Notes: generated by a model not told the origin, from the letters alone. 64,000 bases of DNA from an uncultured Chitinophaga sp. (GCA_964409055.1 CAYPBW010000001.1:9354-73353), one strand, 5' to 3'. Shown: positions 32,299-50,116, counted from the stretch's first letter. Made by a program: numbers and translations.

Positions 32299-32345
32299 TA
32301 TACAATAATTTATTGTGCAATATGCCCCGCAATGCTGGTAACTGC

Positions 32346-32390: not shown

Positions 32391-32406
32391 CCAAAAGAAA
32401 TATAAA

Positions 32407-33000: not shown

Positions 33001-33018
33001 AGTTTAAATTTCCGCTTA

Positions 33019-33591
33019 CTATTTCATTTCTGTAAAAATGATATGCCATACGCCTCTTAAGTCACCATCCTTGTAATTAAAAGCAGCATCATCTGGATAT
33101 TTTTTCTGGATCATATCCCATGTATCCGGTTTTATCTGTGTTTCTTTTTCCCCGTGACAGTTCAGGCACATTGCCTGAATAAATATGGGTTTGAAGTAGT
33201 GATGGTTTCCCTTTGAATCTTGCTTTACAATTGCTGTTAGTTGTTTATTTTCTTTTTTTTGTTCCAGGTAGGTCTTAATCACATCTTTTTCCATCTCATC
33301 CGGGGTATTGACGGAATTACGGATTTTATCAGAAGTTCTTTTAATTTGGATTCCTGCACCCGTATAAGTTTTTGTAAGATCTAATGCCGATGTATTACAA
33401 AAATCAACAGCGCCTGGAATGCCTCTTTCGCTGATTGCTTTCAGCAATGTATTTCTGAGTGTGTCAAATGTTTGTACTGTCAGTGAATCTCCTTTGTTTT
33501 TCCAATCTATAAATTCTTTTTTATCTTTTGATTCTTTGCAGGAAACCAAAAAAGTCAATAAGCCGGTAATGAGAAATGAATATTTCAACAT
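33019..33591 (-). CDS. DUF3365 (Tll0287-like) c-type heme lipoprotein
   Basis: 190 aa with lipobox LVSC and a single CLNCHG heme-attachment motif. Confidence 0.65.
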   Translation of the reverse strand: MLKYSFLITGLLTFLVSCKESKDKKEFIDWKNKGDSLTVQTFDTLRNTLLKAISERGIPGAVDFCNTSALDLTKTYTGAGIQIKRTSDKIRNSVNTPDEMEKDVIKTYLEQKKENKQLTAIVKQDSKGNHHYFKPIFIQAMCLNCHGEKETQIKPDTWDMIQKKYPDDAAFNYKDGDLRGVWHIIFTEMK

Positions 33592-33607
33592 AAACCATTT
33601 TTTAAGG

Positions 33608-34867: not shown

Positions 34868-36180
34868 TTCTTGCTAAGATAAACTTTCCAGATAACAGGT
34901 GATGCCCGGCTTGGCTCTGCTTCATTACTCCAGAAAATATTGGGAGCCCTGCTGTCTATTCCACCTATAATGTAACCTGCTAGTAATGGCTTGGTTCCCA
35001 TTCTTTCTAATTGTAAAATGTCGTTGTTGCTATAGGAAGTTTCGTCCGCAGGTATGAATTCTGCAGCTGCTCCAAAATAGCCGGATAATTGTTCCGGTAA
35101 CAGGTATTCCTTTATGCCAGTTGCATTTCTTTCAACTACACTGATGTGTTTTACAAACGGTACATCATTATCAGTTTTTACTGTGCCAGACTGATCTATA
35201 TATTTCTGTGCAATACCGCCGAAGAAGATAGTATAAAGCGTTTTCTTTATTTTATCGTAAGCAGGTAGTGTAGCAGAATGGTAATGGCTGAATTGTTGAT
35301 TGAAATTTTTAACCTCATTATGATTGTTGGCCGTGATATCAATCAGCGTAGTGTAAGGAAGGTCTTTTTCATATTGAAATACTCCGGAGTAAATGGTCAG
35401 CATTTCCCTGCCATTTTCATCATATTGGTTCAGCAGGTTATAATCTCTCCGGTGCAGCAATGCAGAATCGGTTACTGCGGTGTAATTTTCAATCGCTATC
35501 TCGTTGCCTTTTTCCGTTATTAAGAATTTTCTGATCTGGTTAGTGTATTTTTGACTGAAGCCGGGTCCATGATCGGGTCCATGCGGGTTATAACGGCCAT
35601 CAAATCGTTGTCCGCCCACCAGGTAAAACAAATTATCCAACTTATTCAAATGGCCACCTGTTACGGCCATACGTTCATCTATCAGTTGTGTAATAAATGA
35701 AGTTATATCCGTATTATTAATGATCCCGTCTATCGTTTCTTTTACATTAATTTTTAATAAGGCGGGATGTGTAATATGGTCCCTTTTTGTTTCGCTATAG
35801 CCATAGCCGCCAATAACGATCAGATCATTTTGCTGCTGATAAAACTCCGTATTGCTGCTTTGTAACTGTTCAGCAAGCAGGGCAGGAAAACCGCTTACAG
35901 ATTTTTTCCAGACTTTTTCTGTTTTTACATCCAGAACAATAAGATCAGTGTTATTATGCTTTTTATTAAAGGAAGCAAAAGGTTGCCTGCGATGCAGCCC
36001 GTCCGTTCTTCCGCCAACCAGCAGTATTTTATTCCCTGATTTAGCCCAGGCATACGACTGGAGGCCGGAGAACCCTTCAGGGATCATGGGTTCGAGAGAA
36101 ATCTTATATGGAAAATTTTCCTGGCTAGTTCCTGTCAGGTTCAATAAGATTATTATCAGTGCAGTCAGAAAAGCTTTCAT
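34864..36180 (-). CDS. Secreted six-bladed Kelch-like beta-propeller protein, function unknown
   Basis: 438 aa with a signal peptide. Six blade signatures are spaced about 50-70 aa apart: LLVGGRTDG, LIVIGGYGYS, FYLVGGQRFDG, LTIYSGVFQY, TIFFGGIAQKY, AGYIIGGIDS. Confidence 0.6.
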   Translation of the reverse strand: MKAFLTALIIILLNLTGTSQENFPYKISLEPMIPEGFSGLQSYAWAKSGNKILLVGGRTDGLHRRQPFASFNKKHNNTDLIVLDVKTEKVWKKSVSGFPALLAEQLQSSNTEFYQQQNDLIVIGGYGYSETKRDHITHPALLKINVKETIDGIINNTDITSFITQLIDERMAVTGGHLNKLDNLFYLVGGQRFDGRYNPHGPDHGPGFSQKYTNQIRKFLITEKGNEIAIENYTAVTDSALLHRRDYNLLNQYDENGREMLTIYSGVFQYEKDLPYTTLIDITANNHNEVKNFNQQFSHYHSATLPAYDKIKKTLYTIFFGGIAQKYIDQSGTVKTDNDVPFVKHISVVERNATGIKEYLLPEQLSGYFGAAAEFIPADETSYSNNDILQLERMGTKPLLAGYIIGGIDSRAPNIFWSNEAEPSRASPVIWKVYLSKK

Positions 36181-36246: not shown

Positions 36247-36259
36247 CTATAATGAAAAA

Positions 36260-36281
36260 GCCAGGGGAAGAATCCCCCGGC
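36260..36281 (-). terminator. Hairpin after the YeeE/YedE pair
   Basis: gccagggg-aagaat-cccccggc (1 mismatch). On the minus strand it is followed by ctttttcatt. Confidence 0.45.
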
Positions 36282-36309
36282 TTACTGCTAAATATTAAAA
36301 AAACTCTTT

Positions 36310-36843
36310 TTAATGAGGTAGTTTGCTCCTGAATTTTCCATACACCCAGGTTCCCACAATGGCGCTAAAAAGGGTAACAATAATAACCAATGCACCTGTT
36401 CCGATTTGTGCAAACAGCGGGCCCGGGCAGGCGCCGGTAATAGCCCAGCCAAATCCAAAGATTAAAGCACCATAGATATTACCCTTATTAAACTTCTTAT
36501 CAACAAACTCAATGGGTTCACCATAAATGGTTTTGACTTTGAATTTTTTTATCAGCCACACAGAGATGATACCTACTGCTACTGCAGAACCGATTACACC
36601 AAACATGTGGAAACTCTGGAGCCTGAACATTTCCTGAATTCTGAACCAGGAGATAACTTCTGCTTTAATGAGAATTATTCCAAACAATATTCCAGCTACG
36701 GCATATTTAAGATTATACCACCAGGGATGTTTTAATTCTGACTCGTTAAAACAAACAGCATCTAATGAACGAACTTCAAAATCTGTGTTCTGTGTAAGAA
36801 ATTCATGATGTTTCTTTTCCTGCAATGTTTCATTTACACTCAT
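36310..36843 (-). CDS. YeeE/YedE-family half-transporter (sulfur-compound transport), 177 aa
   Basis: Multi-TM protein with the GWAITGACPGPLFAQIG motif. Confidence 0.8.
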   Translation of the reverse strand: MSVNETLQEKKHHEFLTQNTDFEVRSLDAVCFNESELKHPWWYNLKYAVAGILFGIILIKAEVISWFRIQEMFRLQSFHMFGVIGSAVAVGIISVWLIKKFKVKTIYGEPIEFVDKKFNKGNIYGALIFGFGWAITGACPGPLFAQIGTGALVIIVTLFSAIVGTWVYGKFRSKLPH

Positions 36844-36849
36844 GCTATA

Positions 36850-37413
36850 TTATAATTTTAAAATTAAAGGAAGAATAAGGTTGGCTACAATAAAACCACC
36901 GGTCATAAAACTGATGGTGGCAACCAGTGAGGGCCATTGAAGGTTTGACAAGCCCATAATTGCATGGCCGCTGGTACATCCACCAGCATACCGGGTTCCG
37001 AATCCTACAAGGAATCCACCGACAACCATCATGATAATGCCTTTAGCACTGCTAAGTGCCTGCCAGTTAAATAAATCGGCAGGTACAAAGGAGTCATAGT
37101 TGGTAACACCATAGGTTGCCAGCTCTGCCTGTAATTTTGGATTGACTTGTATGGGTTCAGGATTTCCTAATAAACTAACCGCAAGAAATCCCCCACCTAC
37201 GATTCCTGCAACAAAAAAGAGATTCCATATTTCCTTTTTCCAGTCGTATTGAAAGAAGGGAATCTTTGCGGGTACACAAGCAGCGCATACATGCCGCAGC
37301 GAGGACGATATGCCAAAGGATTTATTACCGATGATGAGTAGTACAGGCACCATAAGGCCTATTAGTGGACCGGCTACATACCAGGGCCAGGGTTGTTTCA
37401 GAAAATCTAACAT
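36850..37413 (-). CDS. YeeE/YedE-family half-transporter, 187 aa
   Basis: Multi-TM protein with the [14 protein letters not shown] motif typical of YeeE/YedE. Confidence 0.8.
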
Positions 37414-37488: not shown

Positions 37489-38493
37489 TTATTTCTTTTT
37501 TGCGAGTTCTTCTTTTTGGGCAATGATAGGTTTATAAGGTCCATATTTATGCTGGTTTTCTGAAAATCCATCTGCATAGGGGCCAAACGGATGATCAAAT
37601 GGTTTTTTGGAAATATCCGGCCAGTCATTGCTTAAATCTTTTCCAGGCCTGGGCTGACTATTTACATAAGCTGCCACATCCCAGGCTTCTTCTGTTGTAA
37701 GCTTTGGATTATCATGTGTGGCTTGTTTAAAGGGCATATTACTTTTTACATAACCAGCAAAATTGCTCAGGCGAAACAGACCCGCACCATCATTGTAACT
37801 ATGTTCTCCCCAAAGTGGAGGATATTCATAGCTAACGCCATTCAGAGTGAGCTGCCCCTCGCCGTTTGCTCCGTGACAACTTTGGCACTGTGCAGTGTAC
37901 ACTGCCTTCCCTTTTACCGGATCAGCAGCCCTGTCCAGATAGTTTAATTTAGCAATACCGCTTCCCACAGGTCGTTCTCCCTTCTTAACATCCTTACCCA
38001 ACCATTTGATATAAGCATAAATGGCCTGGTACTCCCTGCTGTTGCTATCGGGAGCACTACCATTCAGGCTTCGTTCAAAACAATCGCCTACTCTCTTATA
38101 AATACTTTCCATACTGCCACTCCTGTCCCGGAACCTTGGATAGGTAGAATAAACAGCGCTGTAATTGTTTCCCCATGTTTTCTTTCCGGCATTGAGGTGA
38201 CAGTTCTGGCAATTCATTCCATTGGTAATAGCAGCAACAGAGCCATGAGGTCCGAAATACCGGGCTGTATTTACAATGATATCTTCACCATAAATAACCT
38301 GTTCTCTTTCTTCTCCCTGCAATTCATTATCAGTAAACAGGCTGGGGGTTACCCAACTGCTGTCTGTAGTTGCAGTTACAAGAGATTTTTTTTCGGATGG
38401 TTTTAACGCTTTTGTAATTTCAATTAAAGCAACTATCCCAACTGCGGCGGCAATAATGACTACCTGCCAGTTTGATCTGATGGTGTTCCACAT
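37489..38493 (-). CDS. Membrane-anchored diheme c-type cytochrome, TsdA (thiosulfate dehydrogenase)/SoxA-like
   Basis: ATG at 38493 (MWNTIRSNWQVVIIAAAVG..., signal anchor). Two CxxCH motifs (CQNCH, CQSCH). A conserved Cys in RVGDCFERSLNG sits between the hemes, where TsdA carries its heme-ligating Cys. SNMPF lies near the C-terminus. Confidence 0.65.
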   Translation of the reverse strand: MWNTIRSNWQVVIIAAAVGIVALIEITKALKPSEKKSLVTATTDSSWVTPSLFTDNELQGEEREQVIYGEDIIVNTARYFGPHGSVAAITNGMNCQNCHLNAGKKTWGNNYSAVYSTYPRFRDRSGSMESIYKRVGDCFERSLNGSAPDSNSREYQAIYAYIKWLGKDVKKGERPVGSGIAKLNYLDRAADPVKGKAVYTAQCQSCHGANGEGQLTLNGVSYEYPPLWGEHSYNDGAGLFRLSNFAGYVKSNMPFKQATHDNPKLTTEEAWDVAAYVNSQPRPGKDLSNDWPDISKKPFDHPFGPYADGFSENQHKYGPYKPIIAQKEELAKKK

Positions 38494-38503: not shown

Positions 38504-40198
38504 TTATCTGAATTCGTAAGTTGTTCCTTGTAGTTGTGTAAGCAGTGTATGTGGTTGGTCGGTTGCGGTAGCCCGCATTTCCAGTTTTGGTGAAACCGGT
38601 GAGTGTACCTCCAGGTATTCTTCAATAACTGTGTGCATCAATACACCTAGTTTTTTTGGATTTTTTACTTTTTCCATACGGCAAAGTGTATCGTCCGGAT
38701 CGCCTTCTCTTTCACAGGCAACGATGCTGTATTCTTTATCAAGGTTCAGCGGTTCTCCTTTTATCTTCACCCAGTTTACTCTTTTTCCAAACTCATTATC
38801 AATAGTAAAATTCACTTCCATGCCTGCGAATCGCACAAACCAGCCGCCAAAGCGTTTCGACGGATCTTTGGCAAATGCGTTTTGTAATTCTTTTTCCAGC
38901 CAGTCCCAAACCTGCCTGCCGGTAACTGTCCCTGTCTTTGCTTCGCTATCAACAGGCAGCATGTTCCATAAAAACTCTTTGGTGATTTCAGCTTTCCCGG
39001 TTTTTGGATCTACTGCTAATGGTTGACAGAAACGGAAGCCATTGCTTAACGCAATATCTGTTTTGAATTTCCAGTGTATAGCATCAGTAATCAGGTTATC
39101 CATTGGTGTTTCCATTACAAAATATCTTACCAGCGGGGTAGTGGTGGTTCCAATTACTTTGGATAATTGCTGTTTATACGGCGCAGCTGCTTTATCTATC
39201 TGAGCCTGCAATTTTTTATCAGCAGGGTACTTGGCGGGGTCTACATCAAGTAACTGGTATTTGTAACTCTTCATTTTTCCATTTTCCACTTCAATATCCA
39301 GTTTACCAAGAAATGAACCAAAAGCACCGCATTCAACTACTTTGGTGTATTTGCCTTCAATAGGAACTCTTACTCTTTCATGTGTATCTGCACCCAAAAT
39401 GAAATCTGCGCCTGCCACTGCTGAGTTGTTTGCCAGTCCTACTTGTTGCGCCAGGCCCATATGCGTAACAATGAAAATAATTCCGCAGCCTTCCACTTCC
39501 TTTAGCAGTTTAATGTATTTAGCCACATTAAAATCAGCATGTTCAAATCGAATTCCTTCGCTGTAAGCCGGAGACTGACGTTTAGGTATCAGGTGGTCGG
39601 TATAGCCAATGAAACCAACTTTGGCTCCGGCAATATACTTTACCCAATAGGGCGGGTAAATCAATTCGCCATTATCTGTATCGTTAGTTTTATGCCACAT
39701 ATTGGCACAAATCTTTGCTGCCGTGGCATGTCCCATATCATAAAGCATTTTCTTTTTCTTATAGACCACTTCCCAATTGCCCGGAAGAATGAGATCATAA
39801 TTAAAATCGTTGAGCAGGGGTATCAATGCTTCACCTTCTGTCAGTGATGCTACGGCACTTCCATGGAAATAGTCGCCCCCATCCAACAATAGGGTGTTGG
39901 ATGGATTTTGCCTGCGAAAATGATTGATCATGGTTTTTAATACTGCTAACCCGCCTCTCTTTCTGTACACTGCTTTCCCGTTTTCCCAGAAAAATTCATC
40001 GTGGGTATGAAGCTGGGCATGAATATCGGAGGTATAAAGTATTGTAAACCTGCCTGGTGTTCCAGTCTCAGTTTTATTATTTAGCTGTTCTGTAGCAGCT
40101 ATAGCTACTGAACCAAGGGTAGTACCCATGCCTGCCAATGCAGCTTTTTTCAAAAAATCCCGGCGGGAATTAGAATCCATGTTTTTCAATGAAGACAT
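38504..40198 (-). CDS. Tat-exported dinuclear metallophosphoesterase/5'-nucleotidase-fold protein, divergent SoxB-like
   Basis: ATG at 40198. Twin-arginine signal SRRDFLKKAALAGMG. Motifs TSDIHAQ, DGGDYFHGS, GNWE (not the GNHE of UshA type), and C-terminal FGGWFVRFAGMEV...GKRVNWVKIKGEPL. Confidence 0.65.
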   Translation of the reverse strand: MSSLKNMDSNSRRDFLKKAALAGMGTTLGSVAIAATEQLNNKTETGTPGRFTILYTSDIHAQLHTHDEFFWENGKAVYRKRGGLAVLKTMINHFRRQNPSNTLLLDGGDYFHGSAVASLTEGEALIPLLNDFNYDLILPGNWEVVYKKKKMLYDMGHATAAKICANMWHKTNDTDNGELIYPPYWVKYIAGAKVGFIGYTDHLIPKRQSPAYSEGIRFEHADFNVAKYIKLLKEVEGCGIIFIVTHMGLAQQVGLANNSAVAGADFILGADTHERVRVPIEGKYTKVVECGAFGSFLGKLDIEVENGKMKSYKYQLLDVDPAKYPADKKLQAQIDKAAAPYKQQLSKVIGTTTTPLVRYFVMETPMDNLITDAIHWKFKTDIALSNGFRFCQPLAVDPKTGKAEITKEFLWNMLPVDSEAKTGTVTGRQVWDWLEKELQNAFAKDPSKRFGGWFVRFAGMEVNFTIDNEFGKRVNWVKIKGEPLNLDKEYSIVACEREGDPDDTLCRMEKVKNPKKLGVLMHTVIEEYLEVHSPVSPKLEMRATATDQPHTLLTQLQGTTYEFR

Positions 40199-40231
40199 CG
40201 GCAATCGTTTTAGGTGAAAAATTACAAGAAT

Positions 40232-40295: not shown

Positions 40296-41714
40296 TTAAA
40301 ACTGGTAATTTAAAACAATGTTCCAAAGACTCATATCTGCTTTATTGATAACGTATTTGTCGTTTCCGTAACTACTGCCTGTTTTTCCTTTATAAACATA
40401 CAGCAGTTGCGTTTCCAGACCCTTTAATATACCGCCAAATTTATAGCGGGCATCAATATTCAACTGGTTATATGAGGGCATTCCATATTTATTGAACCTG
40501 AAATCCGTTACATCCGGCAACTCATAATGCCCGAAGGCTATTGAAGTTGTGATCCTGGCCTTCGGTATTTTGTAATTGACTTTGCCCACCACAGCATGTG
40601 CATCTCCCAGCCCTTCATTTCTTTCTCTCGGTAAAAAGGTGAAGAAAGGATCCCGGCCCCATTCTCTCGGCATAAGGTATCTTCCTTGAGCAGTAATACG
40701 GTTATAGTTCAGGCTTGTTTCCCATTTTTCATACTTCCATCCCAGCCTGGTTCCGAAAGTTATTGCCCTGGCACCCTTTTCAACATAGGCTTTTGAAGGA
40801 TCATTATTGCCACCATCCTTTACTGCATCCTGCCTTATAAACTGTGCCGCTGCAAAAAGCTTTGAATTTTTGGATATCGGATATTCATAATCTGCCTGCA
40901 GCATAGCACTGTTAAAGATATTTTCTGTGTATTGGTTCCAAAACTGGAGTTTTAACTGGTCATTTATTTGGGTAGTAATGCCGGCCAGAAAAATTCCTTT
41001 GCTTTCCAGGTTTCCGGCATATTCAGATTTTATACCCTCATCATTTACCCCCACAGGATATACCCCGATAGACTCTGCTACGTTAAACCACTTAACTGTA
41101 CTTCTGGGCGAAATGCCGTATAAATATCCAAACTGCAACCTGAGTTTTTTTATAGAGTTCATTTCTGTCCAGATACCTTCCACTTCTGTCGGCCTCATCC
41201 GGCCATCCTGCAGGTTAATAAAAGGAGTATTGATCAGTTGTTTACCAAGGGTAATGTGATTGTTACTAAAGTGATACTTGATATATAATTCTTCCAAGCG
41301 GTCAATATCTTTTTTATTAGCAGGGTCTTCAATATCGAACAACCCCGTTTCGTACCTGTTCATTTGTTTGGTTTTGGAATCAGGCACGGAAAGGTCGGAG
41401 GAGCCAATATTATAAACAAAAAATCCGCTCACCCCCACCTGGAAATTCTTAAACCTGCCTGTTTCAAATTTTATTCCGCCTCCCACTGCGTTGGCATAAT
41501 AATCTGTCAGTCCCTCTTTATTATCTGTTGCCATAAAATAATACCGGAAATGGCCACTGAATGTGCCCTTTCTGAATGCGGATAAAATCGAAGTGGAATC
41601 AGCTTCGCTCTCTTTTTCCTTCCATAAACCCGGTTTCTCATTTATCTCCTGGTGCTGTGTATATCCTGGAAGTGAAATCACTATTGCAGTGATGAGTATG
41701 AGAATCTTCTTCAT
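40296..41714 (-). CDS. Outer-membrane beta-barrel porin (OprD-like)
   Basis: 472 aa with a signal peptide, alternating beta-strand pattern throughout, and a C-terminal ...VLNYQF aromatic terminus. Confidence 0.65.
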   Translation of the reverse strand: MKKILILITAIVISLPGYTQHQEINEKPGLWKEKESEADSTSILSAFRKGTFSGHFRYYFMATDNKEGLTDYYANAVGGGIKFETGRFKNFQVGVSGFFVYNIGSSDLSVPDSKTKQMNRYETGLFDIEDPANKKDIDRLEELYIKYHFSNNHITLGKQLINTPFINLQDGRMRPTEVEGIWTEMNSIKKLRLQFGYLYGISPRSTVKWFNVAESIGVYPVGVNDEGIKSEYAGNLESKGIFLAGITTQINDQLKLQFWNQYTENIFNSAMLQADYEYPISKNSKLFAAAQFIRQDAVKDGGNNDPSKAYVEKGARAITFGTRLGWKYEKWETSLNYNRITAQGRYLMPREWGRDPFFTFLPRERNEGLGDAHAVVGKVNYKIPKARITTSIAFGHYELPDVTDFRFNKYGMPSYNQLNIDARYKFGGILKGLETQLLYVYKGKTGSSYGNDKYVINKADMSLWNIVLNYQF

Positions 41715-41767
41715 TACGCTGTACGCATTATGTTTTTGAATAATTGGGGAACAGTCTGTTTCTGGAA

Positions 41768-42199
41768 TCAGAAACCGGCTTTTATATAACTCCAGCCTTG
41801 TTCTTGTTTTCGTACGATTTCGCCGATTCCCATTTTTACAAAAGTGGCTTCTGCTATGATGGTCTCTTTAGGAATTTTTCGCTCCATCATGGTGTTTTCG
41901 CAGGCAATGAACGTAATACCCATTTGTTTGAAATGGCTGATCTTTTCCTGTTGCGTTGTTTTGCCTTTTGTCAGAAAATCAAGACCCGGGCCATGCGCCA
42001 CAACTTCTATTACCACACTGTCGCCCCATCCGGCTTTAAGGTGCTTCAGGTTATTCATCAACCCTTTCCATACCAATGTATCGTTACTGCTTAACTGCAT
42101 TACAATACGATGCTGTGAAACCGTTCCACTTGTGTTTTGAGCCCATCCCTGCAATGCAAATAAGGATATAATGGCAGCCAGTCTGATTCTTTTGTGCAT
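41768..42199 (-). CDS. Exported DsrE/DsrF-like family protein
   Basis: ATG at 42199 gives MHKRIRLAAIISLFALQGWAQ (Sec signal). RIVMQLSS...IEVVAHGPGLDFL...FIACENTM matches the DsrE-like fold and Cys position. Confidence 0.65.
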   Translation of the reverse strand: MHKRIRLAAIISLFALQGWAQNTSGTVSQHRIVMQLSSNDTLVWKGLMNNLKHLKAGWGDSVVIEVVAHGPGLDFLTKGKTTQQEKISHFKQMGITFIACENTMMERKIPKETIIAEATFVKMGIGEIVRKQEQGWSYIKAGF

Positions 42200-42216
42200 A
42201 GTTGTTGAATTTGGTG

Positions 42217-42639
42217 TTATTGTTCCTTTGCTCCGGTCCAATTAGTATAGCCACCATTCAGGTCATACAGTTTTGTAAAACCCATTTCTTTCATGATGCT
42301 CATGGCGTCTATACTTCTTTTTCCACTGCGGCAATAGACCAGGTATGTTTTGTTCTTGTCGAGGCTTGAAATCTGTGCTTTGAACTCTTCTTTTTTTAGC
42401 ACATCAATTTGTGTAGCATGGGGTATATGGCCAGCTTTATATTCATCTGTTGTCCTTACATCCAGCACAACGGTGTTCTTTTTCTTGCTGAGCCGTTCAA
42501 ATTTTTTCTGACTTATTGTTTTGCCTGCCGGATTATCCTGGGCTTGTGCGCAAACAGAACCACATAAGCCAGCCAGCATTAAGGCTGCAGCAATAAATAA
42601 CCAACTGATGCTTTTTATTTTTTTTAGTATAGTACTCAT
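42217..42639 (-). CDS. Exported single-domain rhodanese
   Basis: 140 aa with a signal peptide (…CGSVCAQAQD) and active loop CRSGKRS. Confidence 0.85.
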   Translation of the reverse strand: MSTILKKIKSISWLFIAAALMLAGLCGSVCAQAQDNPAGKTISQKKFERLSKKKNTVVLDVRTTDEYKAGHIPHATQIDVLKKEEFKAQISSLDKNKTYLVYCRSGKRSIDAMSIMKEMGFTKLYDLNGGYTNWTGAKEQ

Positions 42640-42947
42640 GCTATTTTAGTTATCAGACTATTCCAGGGGCCTCCGTTATAGGCCTCAATACCGGCAGATT
42701 TCAGTATGCCTTTTGCCATTCCGCTACGGGCACCGCTTCTGCATACAGTGATTACAGGTTTATTCAGCTTTTTAAGTTCAGCTATTTTAGTACGTATGCT
42801 GTCAAGCGGATAGTTTTTTGATCCGGGAATATGCCCTGATTTGTACTCACCAGCAGACCGAACATCTATTATAACAGCCCCCTTACCGATAAGCTCTTTG
42901 TAGTTGACAGAAGTTCCTCCAAATAGTTTCTTTAAAAATCCAATCAT
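42636..42947 (-). CDS. Single-domain rhodanese (cytoplasmic)
   Basis: 103 aa with active loop CRSGARS. 4-nt overlap with the next gene. Confidence 0.85.
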   Translation of the reverse strand: MIGFLKKLFGGTSVNYKELIGKGAVIIDVRSAGEYKSGHIPGSKNYPLDSIRTKIAELKKLNKPVITVCRSGARSGMAKGILKSAGIEAYNGGPWNSLITKIA

Positions 42948-42958
42948 TGTTTTTAGTA

Positions 42959-43240
42959 TTAATTTAATAAGAATTGCATATCTCCTAAACCACCGCCGTT
43001 ATATACTTCAGTAATACCATTTTGTTTCAGAATGCTTACTGCCATTCCGCTCCTGTTGCCGCTGCGGCAATAGAGCACTATAGGCGTTTTTATTTCTTTG
43101 AGTTCCTTTATCTTGTACATGACCTCTTCCAGGGGAATATTTTTGGCTCCGGGTACATGTTCCATGTCAAATTCCCACGGACTTCTTACATCGACAATTA
43201 CTGTCTCTGATTTTTTTATTATCTCTTTTAATGACTGCAT
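42959..43240 (-). CDS. Single-domain rhodanese (cytoplasmic)
   Basis: 93 aa with active loop CRSGNRS. Confidence 0.85.
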   Translation of the reverse strand: MQSLKEIIKKSETVIVDVRSPWEFDMEHVPGAKNIPLEEVMYKIKELKEIKTPIVLYCRSGNRSGMAVSILKQNGITEVYNGGGLGDMQFLLN

Positions 43241-43259: not shown

Positions 43260-43286
43260 AAGCGGCTGTTGTTATGGCAGCCGCTT
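43260..43286 (-). terminator. Hairpin between prx and the rhodanese block
   Basis: aagcggctg-ttgttatgg-cagccgctt. On the minus strand it is followed by ttttttaaaac, only 21 nt before the rhodanese ATG. Confidence 0.5.
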
Positions 43287-43290: not shown

Positions 43291-43941
43291 TTATAATGTT
43301 TTTTTGGCTAAGTACCAGTCCACCTTTTCTACCGTGTCGTCAGCTAGCCTTGCTTCGTAATCAGCCAACGTTTTAGGTGGGGGTACGATTACTTTGTCAC
43401 CCGGTTCCCAGTTAAGAGGGATTGCCACTTTGTTAGCATCGCTTGTTTGCAATGCAAGCAGCACTCTTTTTATTTCATGCATATTCCTGCCAACGTTCAG
43501 CGGGTAATACATGATAAGGCGAATCGTTCCCTTAGGGTCTATAAAAAATACGGCTCTTACGGCAGCAGTTTCGCTTTCATTGGGTTGCAGCATGCCGTAT
43601 AACTTGGCTACTTTCATGTCCAGGTCGGCTATGATGGGAAATTGGAAATACACACCGGTGTTTTTTTTCACATTATCAACCCAGGCAATATGTGAATGAA
43701 CACTGTCGATACTTAACCCTATCAGTTTAGTATTATGCTTGTCAAAGAAGCTTTCCTGTTCCATTGCAAAGCCGCTCATTTCTGTTGTACATACGGGTGT
43801 GAAATCGGCAGGGTGTGAGAACAGGATCACCCAACTATCTTTTGCATAGTCTGAAAACTTGATCACTCCTTTGGTAGTAACAGCCGAGAAGTCAGGAGCT
43901 TTATCACCTATCCTTGGCATTGTTATAGTATTTGGTTCCAT
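43291..43941 (-). CDS. 1-Cys peroxiredoxin (Prx6 type)
   Basis: 216 aa with the FTPVCTTE peroxidatic Cys motif and no resolving-Cys motif. Confidence 0.9.
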   Translation of the reverse strand: MEPNTITMPRIGDKAPDFSAVTTKGVIKFSDYAKDSWVILFSHPADFTPVCTTEMSGFAMEQESFFDKHNTKLIGLSIDSVHSHIAWVDNVKKNTGVYFQFPIIADLDMKVAKLYGMLQPNESETAAVRAVFFIDPKGTIRLIMYYPLNVGRNMHEIKRVLLALQTSDANKVAIPLNWEPGDKVIVPPPKTLADYEARLADDTVEKVDWYLAKKTL

Positions 43942-44023: not shown

Positions 44024-45442
44024 TTATAATAGTGTCGAAGGACACACATAGTCGCTTATTTTGAACTTACCACTTTCTTTCAGTGCCTTGAAACCGCTTT
44101 TTACATCAACCAGGTTGTCAAATCCCCTGGCACGGAGAATTGAGTTGAATATCATAGAGCGATAACCACCGGCACAATGAACATAATAGGTCTTTTTCTT
44201 ATCGATCTGGGCCATGCTGTCGTTGATAAAGTCAAGTGGTGCATTTTCTGCTTCTACCAGGTGTTCACTCAGGTATTCACTTTTTTTACGGACGTCAAGA
44301 ATGTTTATCTTTTCTTTCTGTGATATGTCCGCAAGTTCATCTGCAGTTACAGATTTAATCATATCAACTTCCTTTCCGGCATTTTTCCAGGCATTGAAAC
44401 CACCTTTCAGGTAACCAATGGTAAAATCATAACCGACCCTGGCTAATCTTGTTACTACTTCTTCTTCACGACCCTCGTCAGTTACAAGTAATATTTCCTG
44501 TTTGATATCGGGAATCATAGCGCCAACCCATGGGGCAAACTGGCCATCAATACCAATATTTATTGAGTTAGGAACAAAGCCCAGCGCAAATGTTTGCGGA
44601 TCTCTTGTATCCAGTACTAATGCACCGGTTTCATTGGCTGCAGTTTCAAAAGCATCCGGACTTAAGGCATGCTGACCTCTTTCGAGCACTTTATCAATAC
44701 TGTCATACCCTTGTATATTCATCATCACATTCAGCGGGAAATAAGCAGGAGGAGCAACAAGCCCTGTTGTAACTTCTTTGATGAATTCTTCTTTGGTCAT
44801 ATTTGCCCGGAGTGCATAATTTGTTTTTTTCTGATTGCCCAGTGTATCAGTTGTTTCTTTACTCATGTTTTTGCCACAGGCACTGCCAGCACCGTGGGCA
44901 GGATATACGGTAATATCATCAGCCAGTGGCATGATCTTATTTCGGAGAGAGTCAAACAAATAACCGGCTAATTTATCCTGTGTAAGGTCGGCTGCCACTT
45001 TCTGTGCAAGGTCAGGACGACCTACATCACCGATAAACAATGTATCACCGGAGAACAAACCAACATCCTTACCGTTTTCATCTTTCAGCAGGTAGCAGGT
45101 ACTTTCCATCGTATGACCGGGAGTATGCAGTACTTTCAATGTTACATTGCCTACTTTAAATTCCTGGCCATCTTCAGCAATCAGTGCATCAAAGGCAGGT
45201 TTAGCATTTGGACCGTACACAATGGGTGCGCCGGTTTTTTTGCTAAGGTCAAGGTGACCGCTGACAAAGTCGGCATGAAAGTGTGTTTCAAAAACGTACT
45301 TGATCTTTGCATTGTTACGTTCAGCCTTTTGGATATAAGGCTCTACCTCACGCAGCGGATCAATTACAACAGCTTCACCATTACTCTCGATGTAATAAGC
45401 ACCTTGTGCCAAGCAACCGGTATAAATTTGTTCTACTTTCAT
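44024..45442 (-). CDS. Persulfide dioxygenase (MBL fold) fused to two rhodanese-like domains (CstB-like), copy 2
   Basis: 472 aa, colinear with copy 1 and roughly 65-70% identical by eye, with the same ETHFHADFVSGH and HCAGGYRS motifs. Confidence 0.85.
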   Translation of the reverse strand: MKVEQIYTGCLAQGAYYIESNGEAVVIDPLREVEPYIQKAERNNAKIKYVFETHFHADFVSGHLDLSKKTGAPIVYGPNAKPAFDALIAEDGQEFKVGNVTLKVLHTPGHTMESTCYLLKDENGKDVGLFSGDTLFIGDVGRPDLAQKVAADLTQDKLAGYLFDSLRNKIMPLADDITVYPAHGAGSACGKNMSKETTDTLGNQKKTNYALRANMTKEEFIKEVTTGLVAPPAYFPLNVMMNIQGYDSIDKVLERGQHALSPDAFETAANETGALVLDTRDPQTFALGFVPNSINIGIDGQFAPWVGAMIPDIKQEILLVTDEGREEEVVTRLARVGYDFTIGYLKGGFNAWKNAGKEVDMIKSVTADELADISQKEKINILDVRKKSEYLSEHLVEAENAPLDFINDSMAQIDKKKTYYVHCAGGYRSMIFNSILRARGFDNLVDVKSGFKALKESGKFKISDYVCPSTLL

Positions 45443-45520: not shown

Positions 45521-46330
45521 TCAATGCCCACCGCCACCGGGGAAGAATAACTCTTTAACAATTATATAAATACCCATTACGAGTACAAACCAACCGAACC
45601 CTTTTTTCAGGCCATCAGCAGATACTTTTTTACTGAGTGCATTACCAATGAAAATCCCAACAATGGCAAGACCGGTAACGGACAGTAAAAGTGTCCAGTC
45701 CATGTTTTGTTTGCCAAGGTCACCGGTGAACCCGATTAGTGATTTTGCAGCTATGATTAATAGAGAAGTTCCCACTGCCTGTTTCATTGGCAGCTTACTC
45801 AGTAACACCAATGCCGGGATAATTAGGAAACCGCCTCCGGCACCCACTAACCCTGTGAGCATACCTACCACAGCGCCTTCCAGTAGTATCATTGGATAAT
45901 TGAATTTTTGCTCGCCAGTTTCTTCCGATTTCCCTTTTTTGTTCCTGATCATAGATACAGAAGCAAATACCATCAAAATGGCAAACAGTATCATCATCAG
46001 CAATGATTTAGTTACAACAAAATCACCGATATGAAATACTTCTTTGGGAATGGCGGGTACAAGGAAGGCTCTTGTTGCAAACACTGCTATAATCGAAGGG
46101 ATACCGAAGATGAGAGCAGTTTTCAGGTTCACTTCACCGCTTTTATATTTCGGGTAAGTGCCTACCAGGCTGGTAGCCCCTACAATAAAAAGTGAATAAG
46201 CGGTGGCAAGTACGGGGTTTACCCCAAAAAGATAAACGAGAACAGGTACAGTAAGAATAGAACCGCCTCCGCCAATTAAGCCAAGAGAAACACCGATCAG
46301 AAGAGAAGCTATGTATCCGATTATTTCCAT
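45521..46330 (-). CDS. TauE/SafE family sulfite/anion exporter
   Basis: ATG at 46330 (MEIIGYIASLLIGVSLGLIGGGGSILTVP), 269 aa, about 8 TM segments with an internal repeat. Confidence 0.85.
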   Translation of the reverse strand: MEIIGYIASLLIGVSLGLIGGGGSILTVPVLVYLFGVNPVLATAYSLFIVGATSLVGTYPKYKSGEVNLKTALIFGIPSIIAVFATRAFLVPAIPKEVFHIGDFVVTKSLLMMILFAILMVFASVSMIRNKKGKSEETGEQKFNYPMILLEGAVVGMLTGLVGAGGGFLIIPALVLLSKLPMKQAVGTSLLIIAAKSLIGFTGDLGKQNMDWTLLLSVTGLAIVGIFIGNALSKKVSADGLKKGFGWFVLVMGIYIIVKELFFPGGGGH

Positions 46331-46398: not shown

Positions 46399-47016
46399 CT
46401 ACAATAATTCGATCATATTTCTGTGCAGCTTGAGCAGGTTGCGCTGCTCCATTTTTTTTAAGAGTCTTGAAATTACTTCTCTCGAACTATTCAGGTCATC
46501 GGCTATCTGCTGGTGAGAAGTTTCAATTATCTTTTTCCCTGTAGTATCGGCATGCCTTTTCAGGTAGAATTCAAGTCTCTCATCCATATTTCGAAAGGCC
46601 ACATTGTCAATCACAGCCAACAATTCATCAAAACGGTTTCTGTAGGTCATAATGACAAACTGATACCATGTTTTGTATTTGTTCATCATATCATCCATCA
46701 ACTGGATGGGTATCATGAGGACTTCTGTATCTTCTTCAGCTTTTGCCATAATCTCACTTTGCTGTGACTGTATGGCACAGATCATTGTAACAGCACAAGC
46801 CTGGCCCGGTCCTAAATAATACATCAGAAATTCTCCGCCATCAGGATTTTCCCGGTAGATCTTTACCCTGCCTTCCAATACCAAAGCCGTGGATTTAATA
46901 TACTGGCCGGTACGCATAATGATTTCTCCCGCAAGAAAGGTTCTTTGCACCGCCTCTTTTTCAATCAGCTCAATTAAGCCGGGCTCAAACTGCGGAAATA
47001 GTTCTTTCCAATTCAT
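46399..47016 (-). CDS. Crp/Fnr family transcriptional regulator (205 aa)
   Basis: N-terminal beta-roll effector domain, a long dimerisation helix, and the C-terminal HTH ETSHQQIADDLNSSREVISRLLKKME with R-E-x-x-S-R. Its only two Cys lie in GPGQACAVTMICAI. Confidence 0.9.
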   Translation of the reverse strand: MNWKELFPQFEPGLIELIEKEAVQRTFLAGEIIMRTGQYIKSTALVLEGRVKIYRENPDGGEFLMYYLGPGQACAVTMICAIQSQQSEIMAKAEEDTEVLMIPIQLMDDMMNKYKTWYQFVIMTYRNRFDELLAVIDNVAFRNMDERLEFYLKRHADTTGKKIIETSHQQIADDLNSSREVISRLLKKMEQRNLLKLHRNMIELL

Positions 47017-47026: not shown

Positions 47027-48307
47027 TTAATTATCTAAAACTTTTTCCATTTGCATACTTCTGCTGCCTTTGATAAGCATATGTGTATGCTCGAAATGTT
47101 GTTCACTCAACCAGCCTGTTACGTCGCTTGAAGTAGCGAAAGTAATGAAAGGGTGGTCAAATCTCAGAAAATCACCGCCTACTAATACAACGGCTTTCCA
47201 GTCATGTTGTTTGATCAGGTCAACGATGTCTTTATGTTCCTGCATACTTTCATTGCCTAATTCTGCCATGGCGCCAAGTATAAGCACTTTGTTTTCCGTA
47301 TCAATTTTTGCAAGGTTTTCAATAGCAAGCCGCATACTACTCGGGTTGGCATTGTAAGCATCAAGGATGATTTTGTTTGTTCCTTTTTCAAGAAGCTGAG
47401 ATCTGCTATTAGAAGGGTTGTAGTTTTCAATTGCCAATTTTATAGCCGAATCTTTTACACCAAAATACTTTCCGGCTGTTACAGCCGTCAACACATTTGG
47501 CAGATTATAATCTCCTACAAGATTTGTGTGAATGGTGCCGCATGCCGAGCCCTTAGTAATATTTACCACAAGAAACGGCTCACTTTTGATTGCTGATCCT
47601 TCAATGTCTGCATTGACTGTTCCATATTTAGTTATATGCTCAATTCCCTTACTCATTTCCTGCAGGTAGTCATAATCCCACATCACAAAGGCAGTACCTT
47701 TATTCTCTCTTAAATAATCATAGAGCTCACCTTTACCTTTCCTTACCCCTTCCACTCCGCCAAAGCCTTCCAGGTGGGCTTTACCGCAGTTGGTAATAAG
47801 CCCATGGGTGGGCTTTGTATAAAGGCAATAACCGGCGATTTCCTTTTGGTGATTGGCCCCCATTTCAATTACGGCCAGCTCAGCGTCTTTTTTGATTTTT
47901 AATATAGTCAGCGGGATACCTATATGATTGTTGAGGTTACCCTCCGTTGTATAAGTTCTAAAAGTTGATGACAGTACAGCATGCACCAGTTCTTTGGTGG
48001 TGGTTTTGCCATTACTTCCTGTAATAGCCAGGAAAGGTATATTGAACTGCTCCCGGTGATATTTTGCCAGTTGCTGCAGGGCTGTAAGTACATCTTTAAC
48101 CAGGATGGTTTTTCCCGGAATTTCAAATTCTTTTTCGTCAATAACAGCATAAGCAGCGCCTGACTCAATGGCTTTTTTTGCAAAACTGTTTCCATTGAAA
48201 TGGTCTCCTTTTAATGCAAAGAAAATATCCCCGGGATTGAGTTTCCGGGTATCCGTTTGCACTGAAGGGTGCTGCTCAAATAATTGGTAAAGTTCTTCAA
48301 TTAGCAT
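47027..48307 (-). CDS. murF: UDP-N-acetylmuramoyl-tripeptide--D-alanyl-D-alanine ligase
   Basis: 426 aa with P-loop AITGSNGKTTTKE and typical MurF C-terminal blocks (DAYNANP). Confidence 0.9.
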   Translation of the reverse strand: MLIEELYQLFEQHPSVQTDTRKLNPGDIFFALKGDHFNGNSFAKKAIESGAAYAVIDEKEFEIPGKTILVKDVLTALQQLAKYHREQFNIPFLAITGSNGKTTTKELVHAVLSSTFRTYTTEGNLNNHIGIPLTILKIKKDAELAVIEMGANHQKEIAGYCLYTKPTHGLITNCGKAHLEGFGGVEGVRKGKGELYDYLRENKGTAFVMWDYDYLQEMSKGIEHITKYGTVNADIEGSAIKSEPFLVVNITKGSACGTIHTNLVGDYNLPNVLTAVTAGKYFGVKDSAIKLAIENYNPSNSRSQLLEKGTNKIILDAYNANPSSMRLAIENLAKIDTENKVLILGAMAELGNESMQEHKDIVDLIKQHDWKAVVLVGGDFLRFDHPFITFATSSDVTGWLSEQHFEHTHMLIKGSRSMQMEKVLDN

Positions 48308-48336
48308 GTAGCAAAAGTAGGAGAGTAGTCAATAAA

Positions 48337-48361
48337 AAACCCTCCGGGTTTCGGAGGGTTT
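48337..48361 (-). terminator. Terminator after gldJ
   Basis: aaaccctccg-ggttt-cggagggttt. On the minus strand it is followed by tttattgac. Confidence 0.6.
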
Positions 48362-48381
48362 AATAAACTTTTTATACTTAA

Positions 48382-49947
48382 TTATCTTTTTTGTCTTCTT
48401 GTTTTGAAGTGCTGGCCGGTTTTACGTTTGTTTCCTTCAGGGCTGCCCATACGGTTCATAGCACAACGGAAGCCAAGCGTACTGAGTGCCTGGTCTTCTT
48501 CCAGGAAACGTCTTGCACCTGGAGTGAGCCAGTAAGCTCTGTCATTCCAACTGCCGCCTTTATAAACTTTTGACTTATCGCTTACCAAAGTTGTTGCTCC
48601 GTAACCGTAAGAAGCCTGAGAGAGAGAGTCACCATCCAGGTAGTTTATTACATCACCTCTTTGATAGTTCCTTCTCTTTTTCGCCTCTTCATCACTAACT
48701 GTTACCATCTTCACACGGCCAGTACTGTCTTTTTCGTACCGGGTAGCAGGATCCATAGAGCTTGAATCAGCCACATACAATTTTTTAAATACATTACCAC
48801 GGAAAGGTGCCGGCATATCATCAAAGTCTAATGTTGAAAGCGGACGATATGTATCTTCTACCCACTCACTAACATTACCTGCCATGTTGAAAAGGCCAAA
48901 GCCATTTGGATAAAATGATTTTACAGGGGCAGTGTAAAAGGCACGGTCATTCAAGCCACCAGCCACACCGGCGTTATCACCAGAGCCTCTTTTGAAGTTG
49001 GCGAGGAAAACACCTTGCCAGCTTCCGCGGCGGGTATCACGAAGACCATTTACATTCTGGGCCCAGGGATATAATTGTTTGTTTTGCGCTAACTCCTCAC
49101 CTCTCTTGCCTTCTTTCACACTGGGGCGGGGGTTCTGATTAATCAGACCATAAGCGGCATATTCCCACTCGGCTTCAAAGGGCAGGCGATAGTCCGGAAG
49201 CAGTTTACCTGATTCCATAGTAGGTGCCATAGCAGGCTGTCCTTTCTTAGATTTCAGGTTTTTACCGGGAGGCGCTGTATACAGGCCTAAGAGGTAAGAC
49301 TTAGTAGTGAAATTATTATCTCCCTGCTGAGCGCCGGGTTTTTGATTTGCTTTGTTGATATAACCATCTTTAACGAGAGCATTTTCATTTACCCTGTCAC
49401 TTCTCCAAAGACAGAAATCCTTTGCCTGCTGCCAGGTAACACCTACTACAGGGTAGTCGTTGAAGCCGGGGTGACGGAAATAAAACTCAACCAAAGGCTC
49501 ATTATAACTTAATTCACTTCTCCAGCAAAGGGTGTCCGGTAAAGCACCTTCCAAAATTTTAGCATTGGCAGGGTCTGAAGGATCAAAAACCTTATACAGC
49601 CAGTGAAGGTATTCACGGTAGTGAACGTTAGCAACCTCAGTACGGTCAATGTAGAAGGAGGGAACAGATACACGGCGGGGAATATTATTCCAGTCGCCCA
49701 TTACATCTTCCTCCGTTTGTCCCATGGTAAATGTACCACCCTGAACAAACACCAGACCGGGGCCGAGGCCCTGTTCTTTGGCTTTGGATACCTGGAAACC
49801 ACCCTGGTTTTTGTCATTGTAGTTCCAGCCGGTGACGTCTGACTTATCGTATTTCTTGCCAAAAAGGCCTTTGCCCTTACAAGATGCCAGCAGCACCACA
49901 CAGGATAAAAGGATCGTAAAGTTTTTCACACTCAATGTTTTTTGCAT
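48382..49947 (-). CDS. gldJ: Gliding motility / T9SS lipoprotein GldJ (FGE-sulfatase/SUMF1-like fold)
   Basis: ATG at 49947 gives MQKTLSVKNFTILLSCVVLLASC (lipobox). GPGLVFVQGGTFTMGQ...DWNN and other blocks match GldJ as I remember it from Flavobacterium, where it is also adjacent to murF. Confidence 0.85.
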   Translation of the reverse strand: MQKTLSVKNFTILLSCVVLLASCKGKGLFGKKYDKSDVTGWNYNDKNQGGFQVSKAKEQGLGPGLVFVQGGTFTMGQTEEDVMGDWNNIPRRVSVPSFYIDRTEVANVHYREYLHWLYKVFDPSDPANAKILEGALPDTLCWRSELSYNEPLVEFYFRHPGFNDYPVVGVTWQQAKDFCLWRSDRVNENALVKDGYINKANQKPGAQQGDNNFTTKSYLLGLYTAPPGKNLKSKKGQPAMAPTMESGKLLPDYRLPFEAEWEYAAYGLINQNPRPSVKEGKRGEELAQNKQLYPWAQNVNGLRDTRRGSWQGVFLANFKRGSGDNAGVAGGLNDRAFYTAPVKSFYPNGFGLFNMAGNVSEWVEDTYRPLSTLDFDDMPAPFRGNVFKKLYVADSSSMDPATRYEKDSTGRVKMVTVSDEEAKKRRNYQRGDVINYLDGDSLSQASYGYGATTLVSDKSKVYKGGSWNDRAYWLTPGARRFLEEDQALSTLGFRCAMNRMGSPEGNKRKTGQHFKTRRQKR

Positions 49948-50116
49948 AAACCTATGAATTGGAATATTTTTAACGCCGGATGAGGTAAAAATATTGCACC
50001 TGGTAAAAGGTTTTACCTGCCGGGATTGCGAATATAGGCACTTTCGTAATATACAGATACGCAGAAATACTTTTTTTCGGGCGGAAAATCCCTTTAAAAC
50101 CCATTGGTTTACAAGC

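Follow-up and report, generated by a model that had tools for sequence, protein, structure and literature searches.

Linkage of a predicted exported DsrE-like protein and its rhodanese to SoxB-like and TsdA genes in Bacteroidota: a candidate periplasmic sulfur relay

A 64,000-nucleotide (nt) stretch of DNA from an uncultured Chitinophaga sp. of soil or sludge, referred to here as the window, carries a string of five genes encoding three rhodaneses, a DsrE-like protein, and an OprD-family porin. Analysis of this string and its relatives showed that export is very probable for both the DsrE-like protein and the third rhodanese, that the DsrE-like protein has one invariant cysteine, that its gene stays linked to genes for a SoxB-like hydrolase and a TsdA-type thiosulfate dehydrogenase, and that the two exported proteins occur as natural fusions. 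The most likely function is a periplasmic relay of cysteine-bound sulfur serving a TsdA/SoxB-like pathway. In its full form, this reading makes the genes the periplasmic half of a heterotrophic island for thiosulfate/sulfide oxidation and detoxification, in which the DsrE-like protein would be a SoxY-like carrier for the SoxB-like enzyme, the rhodanese would unload it, the split YeeE pair (PmpAB) would import the sulfur, a persulfide dioxygenase (PDO)-rhodanese would oxidize it, and TauE would provide export. A rough probability of 45% is assigned to this reading.

The five genes were originally predicted to lie at 40296-43240, and all five open reading frames (ORFs) were confirmed there, on the minus strand:

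42959-43240, minus strand: Rhd93, a single-domain rhodanese with the loop CRSGNRS and no leader (cytoplasmic); Pfam Rhodanese, 65 bits.
42636-42947, minus strand: Rhd103, a single-domain rhodanese with the loop CRSGARS and no leader; Pfam Rhodanese, 58 bits.
42217-42639, minus strand: Rhd140, a predicted exported single-domain rhodanese with the loop CRSGKRS; Pfam Rhodanese, 80 bits, residues 44-136.
41768-42199, minus strand: the DsrE-like protein, 143 amino acids, MTH1491/COG1416 type, predicted exported; DsrE PF02635, 36.2 bits (cutoff, 22.7).
40296-41714, minus strand: the OprD-family porin, 472 amino acids, ending in ...NYQF; PF03573, 59 bits (cutoff, 25), residues 54-298 only.

All five proteins pass the Pfam gathering cutoffs, and the string was found again in many Chitinophagaceae assemblies at 60-98% protein identity. 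They are genuine conserved genes and not chance ORFs. The spacings, read from the sequence, are an 11-nt gap between Rhd93 and Rhd103, a 4-nt ATGA overlap between Rhd103 and Rhd140, a 17-nt gap between Rhd140 and the DsrE-like gene, and a 53-nt gap between the latter and the porin gene. The mechanical ORF of the DsrE-like gene spans 41768-42241 with a TTG start; the ATG at 42199 (MHKRIRLAAIISLFALQGWAQ) is the start in essentially all homologues. Besides its family match, the porin has a leader, MKKILILITAIVISLPGYTQ, and a C-terminal Phe. Four RNA runs contain the locus as Logan contigs, at a flat depth of 2 to 7 that covers murF too and is uninformative on expression or transcript ends. A sigma-70 promoter scan, with a model unsuited to Bacteroidota, found 36 sites compared to 32.8 expected and thus no enrichment, and Rfam and tRNA scans gave no match in the locus.

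By model score, fold, and active-site cysteine, the DsrE-like protein is assigned to the MTH1491/COG1416 branch of the DsrE superfamily (PF02635), with a predicted structure behind the fold. Its closest solved relatives are two archaeal proteins, MTH1491 (PDB 1l1s; E values of 2e-12 with the single sequence and 7e-31 with the profile) and ST0148 (PDB 2pd2; 5e-24 with the profile), and a C-terminal QxxGW.Y motif is common to all three. The AlphaFold model (pLDDT, 93.8) gave Foldseek TM scores of 0.95 to 1l1s and 0.87 to 2pd2, and it also matched DsrEFH (2hy5), TusBCD (2d1p), and YchN (1jx7) with a probability of 1.00. The cysteine in the FIACENT segment, to which the original prediction had pointed, is indeed conserved. 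This residue, Cys100, is invariant in an alignment of 45 homologues at 29-75% identity, as is Asn102, and alignments pair it with the Cys found in MTH1491, in ST0148, and in the Swol_2425 "DsrE." It is the sole Cys of the mature protein (motif A-C-E-N-T), and the AlphaFold model places it at the junction between strand 96-100 and helix 101-106. The clade is large: a profile search (E below 1e-10, clustered at 90% identity) recovered more than 4,600 clusters, of which few are named, from metagenome-assembled genomes (MAGs) labeled Chthonomonadales, Thermoanaerobaculia, and Chthoniobacterales. One further protein, P0169 (421 amino acids), joins a metallo-beta-lactamase (MBL)-fold domain (Lactamase_B_2) to a C-terminal MTH1491-type DsrE domain and is apparently leaderless.

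Several observations bear out the prediction that the DsrE-like protein and the third rhodanese carry signal peptides, and both are very probably exported, with a leader conserved across the clade. First, a leader test based on an n-region plus a hydrophobic stretch was passed by 76 of 82 Bacteroidota DsrE-like homologues and by 23 of 31 Rhd140-type homologues, compared to 1 of 31 Rhd93-type and 4 of 37 Rhd103-type homologues. A leader-like N terminus was also present in 124 of the best 150 representatives of 50%-identity DsrE-like clusters (most of the others are fragments), which makes export the rule in this clade. Second, the leader (residues 1-21) belongs to a stretch of 28 extra N-terminal residues relative to the archaeal structures. 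The mature domain starts at about residue 29, and the cytoplasmic archaeal proteins MTH1491 and ST0148 begin exactly there, at residue 29-32 of the DsrE-like protein. In the AlphaFold model, an N-terminal helix (residues 2-20) and a linker precede the first strand, which starts at residue 30; the next in-frame Met (M34) as a start would remove this conserved strand and the invariant His30. Third, among close homologues M1 is invariant and an A-Q cleavage-type site nearly so, and across lineages of 39-68% GC the hydrophobic extension is kept although its sequence is not. As for Rhd140, its N terminus reads MSTILKKIKSISWLFIAAALMLAGLCGSVCAQAQ, a Sec-type leader, and the mature protein has one Cys. 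A lipoprotein was considered for Rhd140 and rejected, as neither leader Cys has a lipobox. The related idea that an exported DsrE protein is exceptional holds in comparison with the characterized DsrE/TusD/DsrE2-5 proteins, since the DsrE-like protein lacks the cytoplasmic, leaderless character of those relay proteins, but it does not hold within the MTH1491-like subfamily, where most of the best representatives have leaders.

The link between the two exported proteins is most evident in their fusion. In the natural fusion P0125, a leader comes first and then a rhodanese, which a short, basic linker joins to a DsrE-like domain that has no leader of its own, and the rhodanese half is 41% identical to Rhd140 (E value, 2e-26). 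A dedicated search found 24 distinct 90% clusters of such fusions, 244-294 amino acids in length, with identity down to 52% and hundreds of member sequences. In two fusion loci (L102 and L103), synteny with the window extends from the FGE-sulfatase and murF genes to PmpAB, and there the fusion occupies the exact place of Rhd140 and the DsrE-like gene. Such fusions argue strongly for joint action of the two exported proteins. At the same two loci, a DUF2490 protein (L102 7273-7980; L103 7272-7979) is found in the place of the OprD porin, possibly as a non-orthologous substitute for the outer-membrane component. All three window rhodaneses have the rhodanese domain (PF00581) with the catalytic Cys in a six-residue loop, and Rhd103 is 54% identical to Rhd93. 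The closest named NCBIfam models for Rhd93 are PspE and GlpE, both below cutoff; PspE is the top named model for Rhd93 only and ranks about ninth for Rhd140 (40 bits, below cutoff).

Gene neighborhoods in Bacteroidota were analyzed with a scan of one genome per species. The 45-sequence alignment (A1) proved too divergent as the query and was replaced by a 12-sequence alignment of close homologues; the best 80 loci were all labeled Bacteroidota. Neighbors within 8 kb were searched for with the window proteins at the 52 loci that had at least 4 kb on both sides. A SoxB-like gene was near the DsrE-like gene in 39 of the 52 (75%) and a TsdA gene in 38 (73%), followed by the YeeE pair (71%), Crp/Fnr (63%), PDO-rhodanese (62%), any small rhodanese (62%), TauE (54%), the porin (52%), and peroxiredoxin (Prx; 10%). 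The gene orders varied widely. At least six were found, namely, DsrE-porin-SoxB-TsdA, TsdA-SoxB-DsrE, TsdA-DsrE-porin-SoxB, DsrE-TsdA-SoxB, SoxB-TsdA-DsrE-porin, and, on a Runella plasmid, TsdA-DsrE-SoxB-porin. This means that the linkage of the DsrE-like, SoxB-like, and TsdA genes outlasts repeated shuffling, which points to function and not to inheritance alone. The porin, which had been described as dedicated, is not strictly so, given its presence in about half of the loci and the DUF2490 protein at the fusion loci; it is an accessory component. Some DsrE-like genes have other surroundings. Lone copies lie directly upstream of a large-subunit catalase gene in two Flavihumibacter genomes (L048 9899-12548; L034), and another is about 4 kb from a catalase gene in a 68% GC genome (L085). 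These catalase neighbors hint at a second context for the family.

The wider context was judged from eight individually examined loci of 52-68% GC. Seven of them sit among sulfur-transfer genes, with an ArsR-type (HTH_5) regulator near six of these seven. The PDO-rhodanese was found in five of the higher-GC loci, the split YeeE pair in seven, TauE in four, and an AhpC/redoxin-type protein in five, and TsdA was absent from all eight. In four of the eight, the DsrE-like gene directly precedes the SoxB-like gene, with a 4-nt overlap in L087, L088, and L094 and a 4-nt gap in L086. One of these is a 60% GC metagenomic contig (L094 6001-11067), where a triplet of DsrE-like, SoxB-like, and DsbH/thioredoxin-like genes occurs twice in tandem and each DsrE/SoxB-like pair overlaps by 4 nt. 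On the evidence of these junctions, the DsrE-like gene is translationally coupled to the SoxB-like gene in more distant lineages. The TsdA/DsrE-like/SoxB-like/OprD/PmpAB cluster is also carried by plasmids of cultured Cytophagales type strains, namely, Runella slithyformis DSM 19594 (pRUNSL04; L090), Pontibacter akesuensis (L089), and Hymenobacter sp. NBH84 (L099). The porin is annotated as "OprD family outer membrane porin" in the Runella and Hymenobacter clusters, and the Hymenobacter cluster adjoins conjugation genes, so the module is probably mobile.

Two plasmids carry related arrangements. In Novosphingobium resinovorum pSA3, a 177-amino-acid "DsrE family protein" (L097 1403-1936) with an apparent leader and a V-C-S-Q-A Cys motif adjoins an ArsR/PDO/PmpAB/TauE/TlpA/DsbA/SoxB-like cluster. 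It was rejected as an MTH1491-type member (BLASTP E value, 0.08) and may represent a second exported DsrE subfamily. A Bradyrhizobium betae plasmid (L098 9562-13218) has, in a metal-resistance region, a DUF302 gene, a SoxB-like gene, and then two c-type cytochrome genes; the small partner encoded there is unlike the DsrE-like protein.

The SoxB-like protein of the window scored 258 bits against the TIGR04486 SoxB equivalog model, below the cutoff of 550, and is about 29% identical to Paracoccus SoxB. Its best PDB match is nevertheless SoxB (2wdc; E value, 6e-20), and its D-x-H, G-D, x-W-E, and His motifs align to Thermus thermophilus SoxB. It has the Metallophos plus 5'-nucleotidase-C architecture, the dinuclear metal motif, and a twin-arginine translocation (TAT) signal (Pfam and TAT model). 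By these comparisons, the window hydrolase is not a canonical SoxB, yet SoxB is its best solved relative. The TsdA-type protein matched Allochromatium vinosum TsdA with an E value of 8e-41. It appears to be a diheme enzyme of this type with the Cys and Met heme ligands in place: the ligand Cys motif RVGDCFERSLNG (GDCFERSLNG) and both CxxCH motifs are retained, and heme 2 reads N-M-P. The likely start is M45 of the ORF, MWNTIRSNWQVVIIAAAVG..., a hydrophobic leader or anchor. The heme 2 region is K-S-N-M-P compared to K-H-K-M-P in A. vinosum TsdA; the Lys ligand of heme 2 in the resting A. vinosum enzyme is thus Asn in the window protein, which accounts for the best PDB match being the 4wqc chain (K-H-N-M-P there).

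These two genes and the five-gene string belong to one minus-strand string in the order Crp/Fnr, TauE, PDO-rhodanese, Prx, the five genes, TAT-SoxB-like, TsdA, and the split YeeE pair. The further features of this island are as follows:

46399-47016, minus strand: Crp/Fnr-family regulator, the first gene of the island; Pfam cNMP_binding and HTH_Crp_2.
45521-46330, minus strand: TauE/SafE sulfite-exporter family membrane protein; Pfam TauE, 162 bits.
44024-45442, minus strand: MBL-fold persulfide-dioxygenase-like protein with two rhodanese domains (SdoA/CstB-like), cytoplasmic; Pfam Lactamase_B and two Rhodanese matches.
43291-43941, minus strand: 1-Cys peroxiredoxin, leaderless, accessory; Pfam AhpC-TSA and 1-cysPrx_C.
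43260-43286, minus strand: GC-rich hairpin and T-run between Prx and Rhd93, read from the sequence; the scan gave a hairpin on the plus strand.
38504-40204, minus strand: TAT-exported SoxB-like metallophosphoesterase/5'-nucleotidase-C protein; TIGR04486, 258 bits, and TAT model above cutoff.
37489-38493, minus strand: TsdA-type diheme thiosulfate dehydrogenase; PDB TsdA 4wq7/4wqc, E value of about 1e-40, and Pfam SoxA-TsdA_cyt-c.
36850-37413, minus strand: half-size YeeE/YedE protein, PmpA-like; Pfam Sulf_transp positions 251-310.
36310-36843, minus strand: half-size YeeE/YedE protein with DUF6691, PmpB-like; Pfam.
36258-36283, minus strand: intrinsic-terminator-like hairpin closing the string; 11 pairs, 7 of them GC, and then a T-run.

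The likely ATG start of TauE at 46330 gives 269 amino acids, and its homologues have 270. The PDO-rhodanese has the architecture named SdoA in the Erythrobacter flavus cluster (PMC7608252). The half-size YeeE proteins match the C-terminal and N-terminal halves of the YeeE/YedE family, respectively, and are therefore assigned as PmpA-like and PmpB-like (PMC11582611). The hairpin at 43260-43286, about 20 nt before the Rhd93 start, is a possible partial terminator or attenuator that would divide the island into two expression units. A search of all six frames of the 64-kb window found no SoxY-type GGC[GA]G C terminus, and a carrier role for the DsrE-like protein in place of SoxYZ is therefore a reasonable hypothesis.

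Beside the island, at 28251-34867, is a second sulfur/thiol group that includes a Pyr_redox_2 flavoprotein (possibly SQR-like), a second MBL-rhodanese, a thioredoxin, a redoxin/TlpA-like protein, a TPMT/TehB-like methyltransferase, a Tll0287-like protein, and an MFS transporter. Past the terminator of the string, 34864-36180 (minus strand) encodes a 438-amino-acid exported protein with only a faint Kelch-repeat match; 17% of the related loci have a homologue close to the DsrE-like gene, and leaders are present in 12 of 12 of these homologues. Upstream of the island, the murF and FGE-sulfatase-domain genes (47027-50118) are syntenic across Chitinophagaceae relatives (L001, L102, and L103), which means that the island is at a fixed chromosomal site in this family, though plasmid-borne elsewhere.

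The domain identities, the conserved leaders, the invariant Cys, the linkage, and the fusion are established, whereas all of the chemical steps that follow are inferred. First, thiosulfate, tetrathionate, or polysulfide would pass the outer membrane through the OprD-type porin. Second, going by the family and its intact motifs, TsdA would oxidize two thiosulfate molecules to tetrathionate. Third, the Cys100 thiol may attack tetrathionate and give DsrE-Cys-S-S-SO3- and thiosulfate, as cytoplasmic DsrE3 and TusA chemistry suggests. Fourth, by analogy with SoxB acting on SoxY, the TAT-exported SoxB-like enzyme would hydrolyze the terminal sulfonate to sulfate and leave DsrE-Cys-S-S-. The exported rhodanese could then take the sulfane sulfur and regenerate the carrier, a step supported by the natural fusion, and the sulfur would enter the cell through the PmpAB channel. 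Finally, the two small rhodaneses and the PDO-rhodanese would oxidize it to sulfite in the cytoplasm and TauE would export the sulfite, as their family roles suggest.

A broader form of this reading, in which the exported MTH1491-type DsrE is a second, independently evolved periplasmic carrier and the counterpart of SoxYZ for the SoxB-like family, with loading by TsdA and tetrathionate and unloading by a rhodanese that is sometimes fused to it, is possible but on balance doubtful.

A number of observations weigh against the carrier reading. Roughly one in four of the Bacteroidota DsrE-like genes is a lone copy, and a catalase gene lies beside or near three of these. The partnership is not obligate either: on Sphingomonadales plasmids (pSA3 and pANTQ-1) the SoxB-like gene follows TlpA/DsbA genes, in Bradyrhizobium it follows a DUF302 gene, and in neither case is an MTH1491-type DsrE gene adjacent. 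In the canonical system, the flexible C-terminal arm of SoxY brings the substrate to SoxB, and a Cys at the N terminus of a helix may be unable to enter a SoxB-type active site when the DsrE domain around it is compact and probably trimeric. The leaders were called by a heuristic and not by SignalP, and literature on COG1416, on MTH1491, or on DsrE together with a signal peptide, TsdA, or a metallophosphatase yielded no functional study of the clade. In E. flavus 21-3, the authors have SoxB act on free tetrathionate, and deletions of D0Y83_01360 and D0Y83_01430, each adjoining a SoxB-like gene, had no phenotype (PMC7608252).

The alternative that best survives takes up this last point. Here, the SoxB-like enzyme would hydrolyze free tetrathionate or polythionates, and the DsrE-like protein and the rhodanese would catch the released zero-valent sulfur as persulfides for import by PmpAB, which would keep sulfur globules from forming in the periplasm or outside the cell. 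In E. flavus, model and genetics call for TsdA and SoxB only, the Sphingomonadales and Bradyrhizobium SoxB-like genes do without this type of DsrE, the YeeE pair accompanies most of the Bacteroidota loci, and the rhodanese::DsrE fusion would suit a sulfane shuttle equally well. However, the three 4-nt overlaps, the one 4-nt gap, and the tandem triplets suggest a closer tie between the DsrE-like and SoxB-like proteins, as between an enzyme and its partner, and we know of no biochemical demonstration that a SoxB-family enzyme uses a free inorganic substrate. Capture downstream of SoxB-like is rather unlikely.

A role in damage control appears less probable still. The thiol of the DsrE-like protein would then buffer or trap reactive sulfur or oxygen species in the periplasm, outside any flux-carrying oxidation pathway, and together with thioredoxin-like proteins and the SoxB-like enzyme the protein would clear S-sulfonate and persulfide adducts. 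This would fit the higher-GC copies, which are found in ArsR-type regulated operons with PDO-rhodanese, TauE, and redoxin/TlpA/DsbH-like proteins, as well as the lone copies by large catalase genes (L048, L034, and L085) and the Prx gene within the window string. But Prx is present in only a tenth of the Bacteroidota loci, and the rearrangement-proof link to the electron-yielding TsdA and an outer-membrane channel in Bacteroidota points to substrate processing instead.

The original prediction also had the three rhodaneses, with their related but distinct loops, hand sulfur outward in graded steps from the cytoplasm to the periplasm and on to the DsrE-like protein. Three paralogous rhodaneses do occur in a row with the last one exported, but this relay is very improbable. 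Rhd93 and Rhd103 lack leaders both in the window and in homologues, and soluble proteins have no mechanism to pass sulfur across a membrane. Close relatives have anywhere from 0 to 3 small rhodaneses, L004, L013, L014, L016, L019, and L022 lack the exported one, and the three loops all belong to one six-residue type, CRSGxRS. The split YeeE/PmpAB pair is the likely conduit, with an inward direction, since the cytoplasmic partners, PDO-rhodanese and TauE, use up sulfane sulfur. Least probable of all is an annotation artifact in which internal starts are used, the leaders are untranslated, and both proteins are cytoplasmic: the extension conserved over a wide GC range, the invariant M1 with its near-invariant A-Q site, the first strand that a start at the next Met would cost, and the linker behind the exported rhodanese that stands in for the DsrE leader in the fusions all argue against it.

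If the broader form of the carrier reading is true, it would describe a Sox-independent, carrier-based pathway of thiosulfate oxidation that is often plasmid-borne and whose named homologues span MAGs labeled Bacteroidota, Chthonomonadales, Thermoanaerobaculia, and Chthoniobacterales. SoxB-family enzymes act on carrier-bound sulfur, and we know of no carrier that has been named for the TsdA/SoxB-like route. The comparative data put one forward, a secreted DsrE-fold protein that has a single Cys and a rhodanese of its own, and they indicate that a whole branch of the DsrE superfamily is extracytoplasmic, a branch for which no functional study was found. Because the cluster is on plasmids of cultured Runella, Pontibacter, and Hymenobacter strains, the idea is directly testable. 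Should the carrier reading prove wrong, the family still points to a conserved part of sulfide/persulfide stress operons that lies in the periplasm. The TsdA/SoxB-like route has been proposed as a major source of zero-valent sulfur from heterotrophs (PMC7608252). The TsdA/SoxB-like/PDO-rhodanese frame (from E. flavus), the fold family, and exported rhodaneses are already known; a description of an exported DsrE fold as a conserved, sometimes rhodanese-fused partner of SoxB-like was not found in the literature.

Among known systems, the E. flavus 21-3 pathway offers the closest frame. A route of TsdA, SoxB-like, and PDO-rhodanese has been shown genetically there (PMC7608252; also PMC9426585), with TsdA and SoxB being the genes needed for sulfur globule formation (PMC7608252). 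The likeness lies in a TsdA-type diheme cytochrome, a noncanonical SoxB-like "metallophosphatase/5'-nucleotidase," and an MBL-fold PDO-rhodanese (SdoA) in one cluster, with no SoxYZ involved and a heterotrophic host. The 64-kb window likewise appears to co-encode these three proteins without SoxYZ. The difference is that the published model names no carrier protein, whereas the module in the window and in Bacteroidota also includes PmpAB, a porin of the outer membrane, and an exported DsrE-fold protein, often together with an exported rhodanese. This comparison is with the published description of the E. flavus cluster.

The SoxYZ-SoxB system is similar in that a periplasmic hydrolase of SoxB lineage is accompanied by an exported protein that is small and has a single reactive Cys, and the proposed chemistry is the same, with a Cys-S-thiosulfonate hydrolyzed to a Cys persulfide and sulfate. 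However, SoxY has an immunoglobulin-like fold and a C-terminal GGCGG arm, whereas the DsrE-like protein has the DsrE alpha/beta fold and an internal Cys. Loading is by SoxXA there and would be by TsdA and tetrathionate here, and the window hydrolase reaches 258 of the 550 bits set as the SoxB cutoff. Lacking the fold and the arm, the DsrE-like protein is not a SoxY member and could be a functional analogue at most.

Escherichia coli PspE and Wolinella Sud are exported rhodaneses, and Rhd140 resembles them as a single-domain rhodanese with a leader and one active-site Cys. It differs in that its gene adjoins, or is fused to, that of a DsrE-fold protein, and all three window rhodaneses fall below the PspE equivalog cutoffs. 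Among DsrE proteins, MTH1491 and ST0148 have the same Cys and C-terminal motif but are 108-113 amino acids long, without the 28-residue leader. DsrEFH/TusBCD and DsrE2-E5 share the superfamily, the fold, and the equivalent Cys position; their characterized members are all treated as cytoplasmic, and the DsrE-like protein belongs to the separate MTH1491/COG1416 branch with a leader. A survey of DsrE-type transferases does not use the words "signal peptide" and "periplasm," and it reports that DsrE3A, DsrE3B, DsrE3C, and TusA react with tetrathionate to give Cys-thiosulfonates (PMC11094781). The DsrE3 proteins, such as DsrE3A of Metallosphaera cuprina, are thus loaded with thiosulfonate from tetrathionate and hand sulfur to partner transferases, the kind of chemistry that is proposed here for the periplasm.

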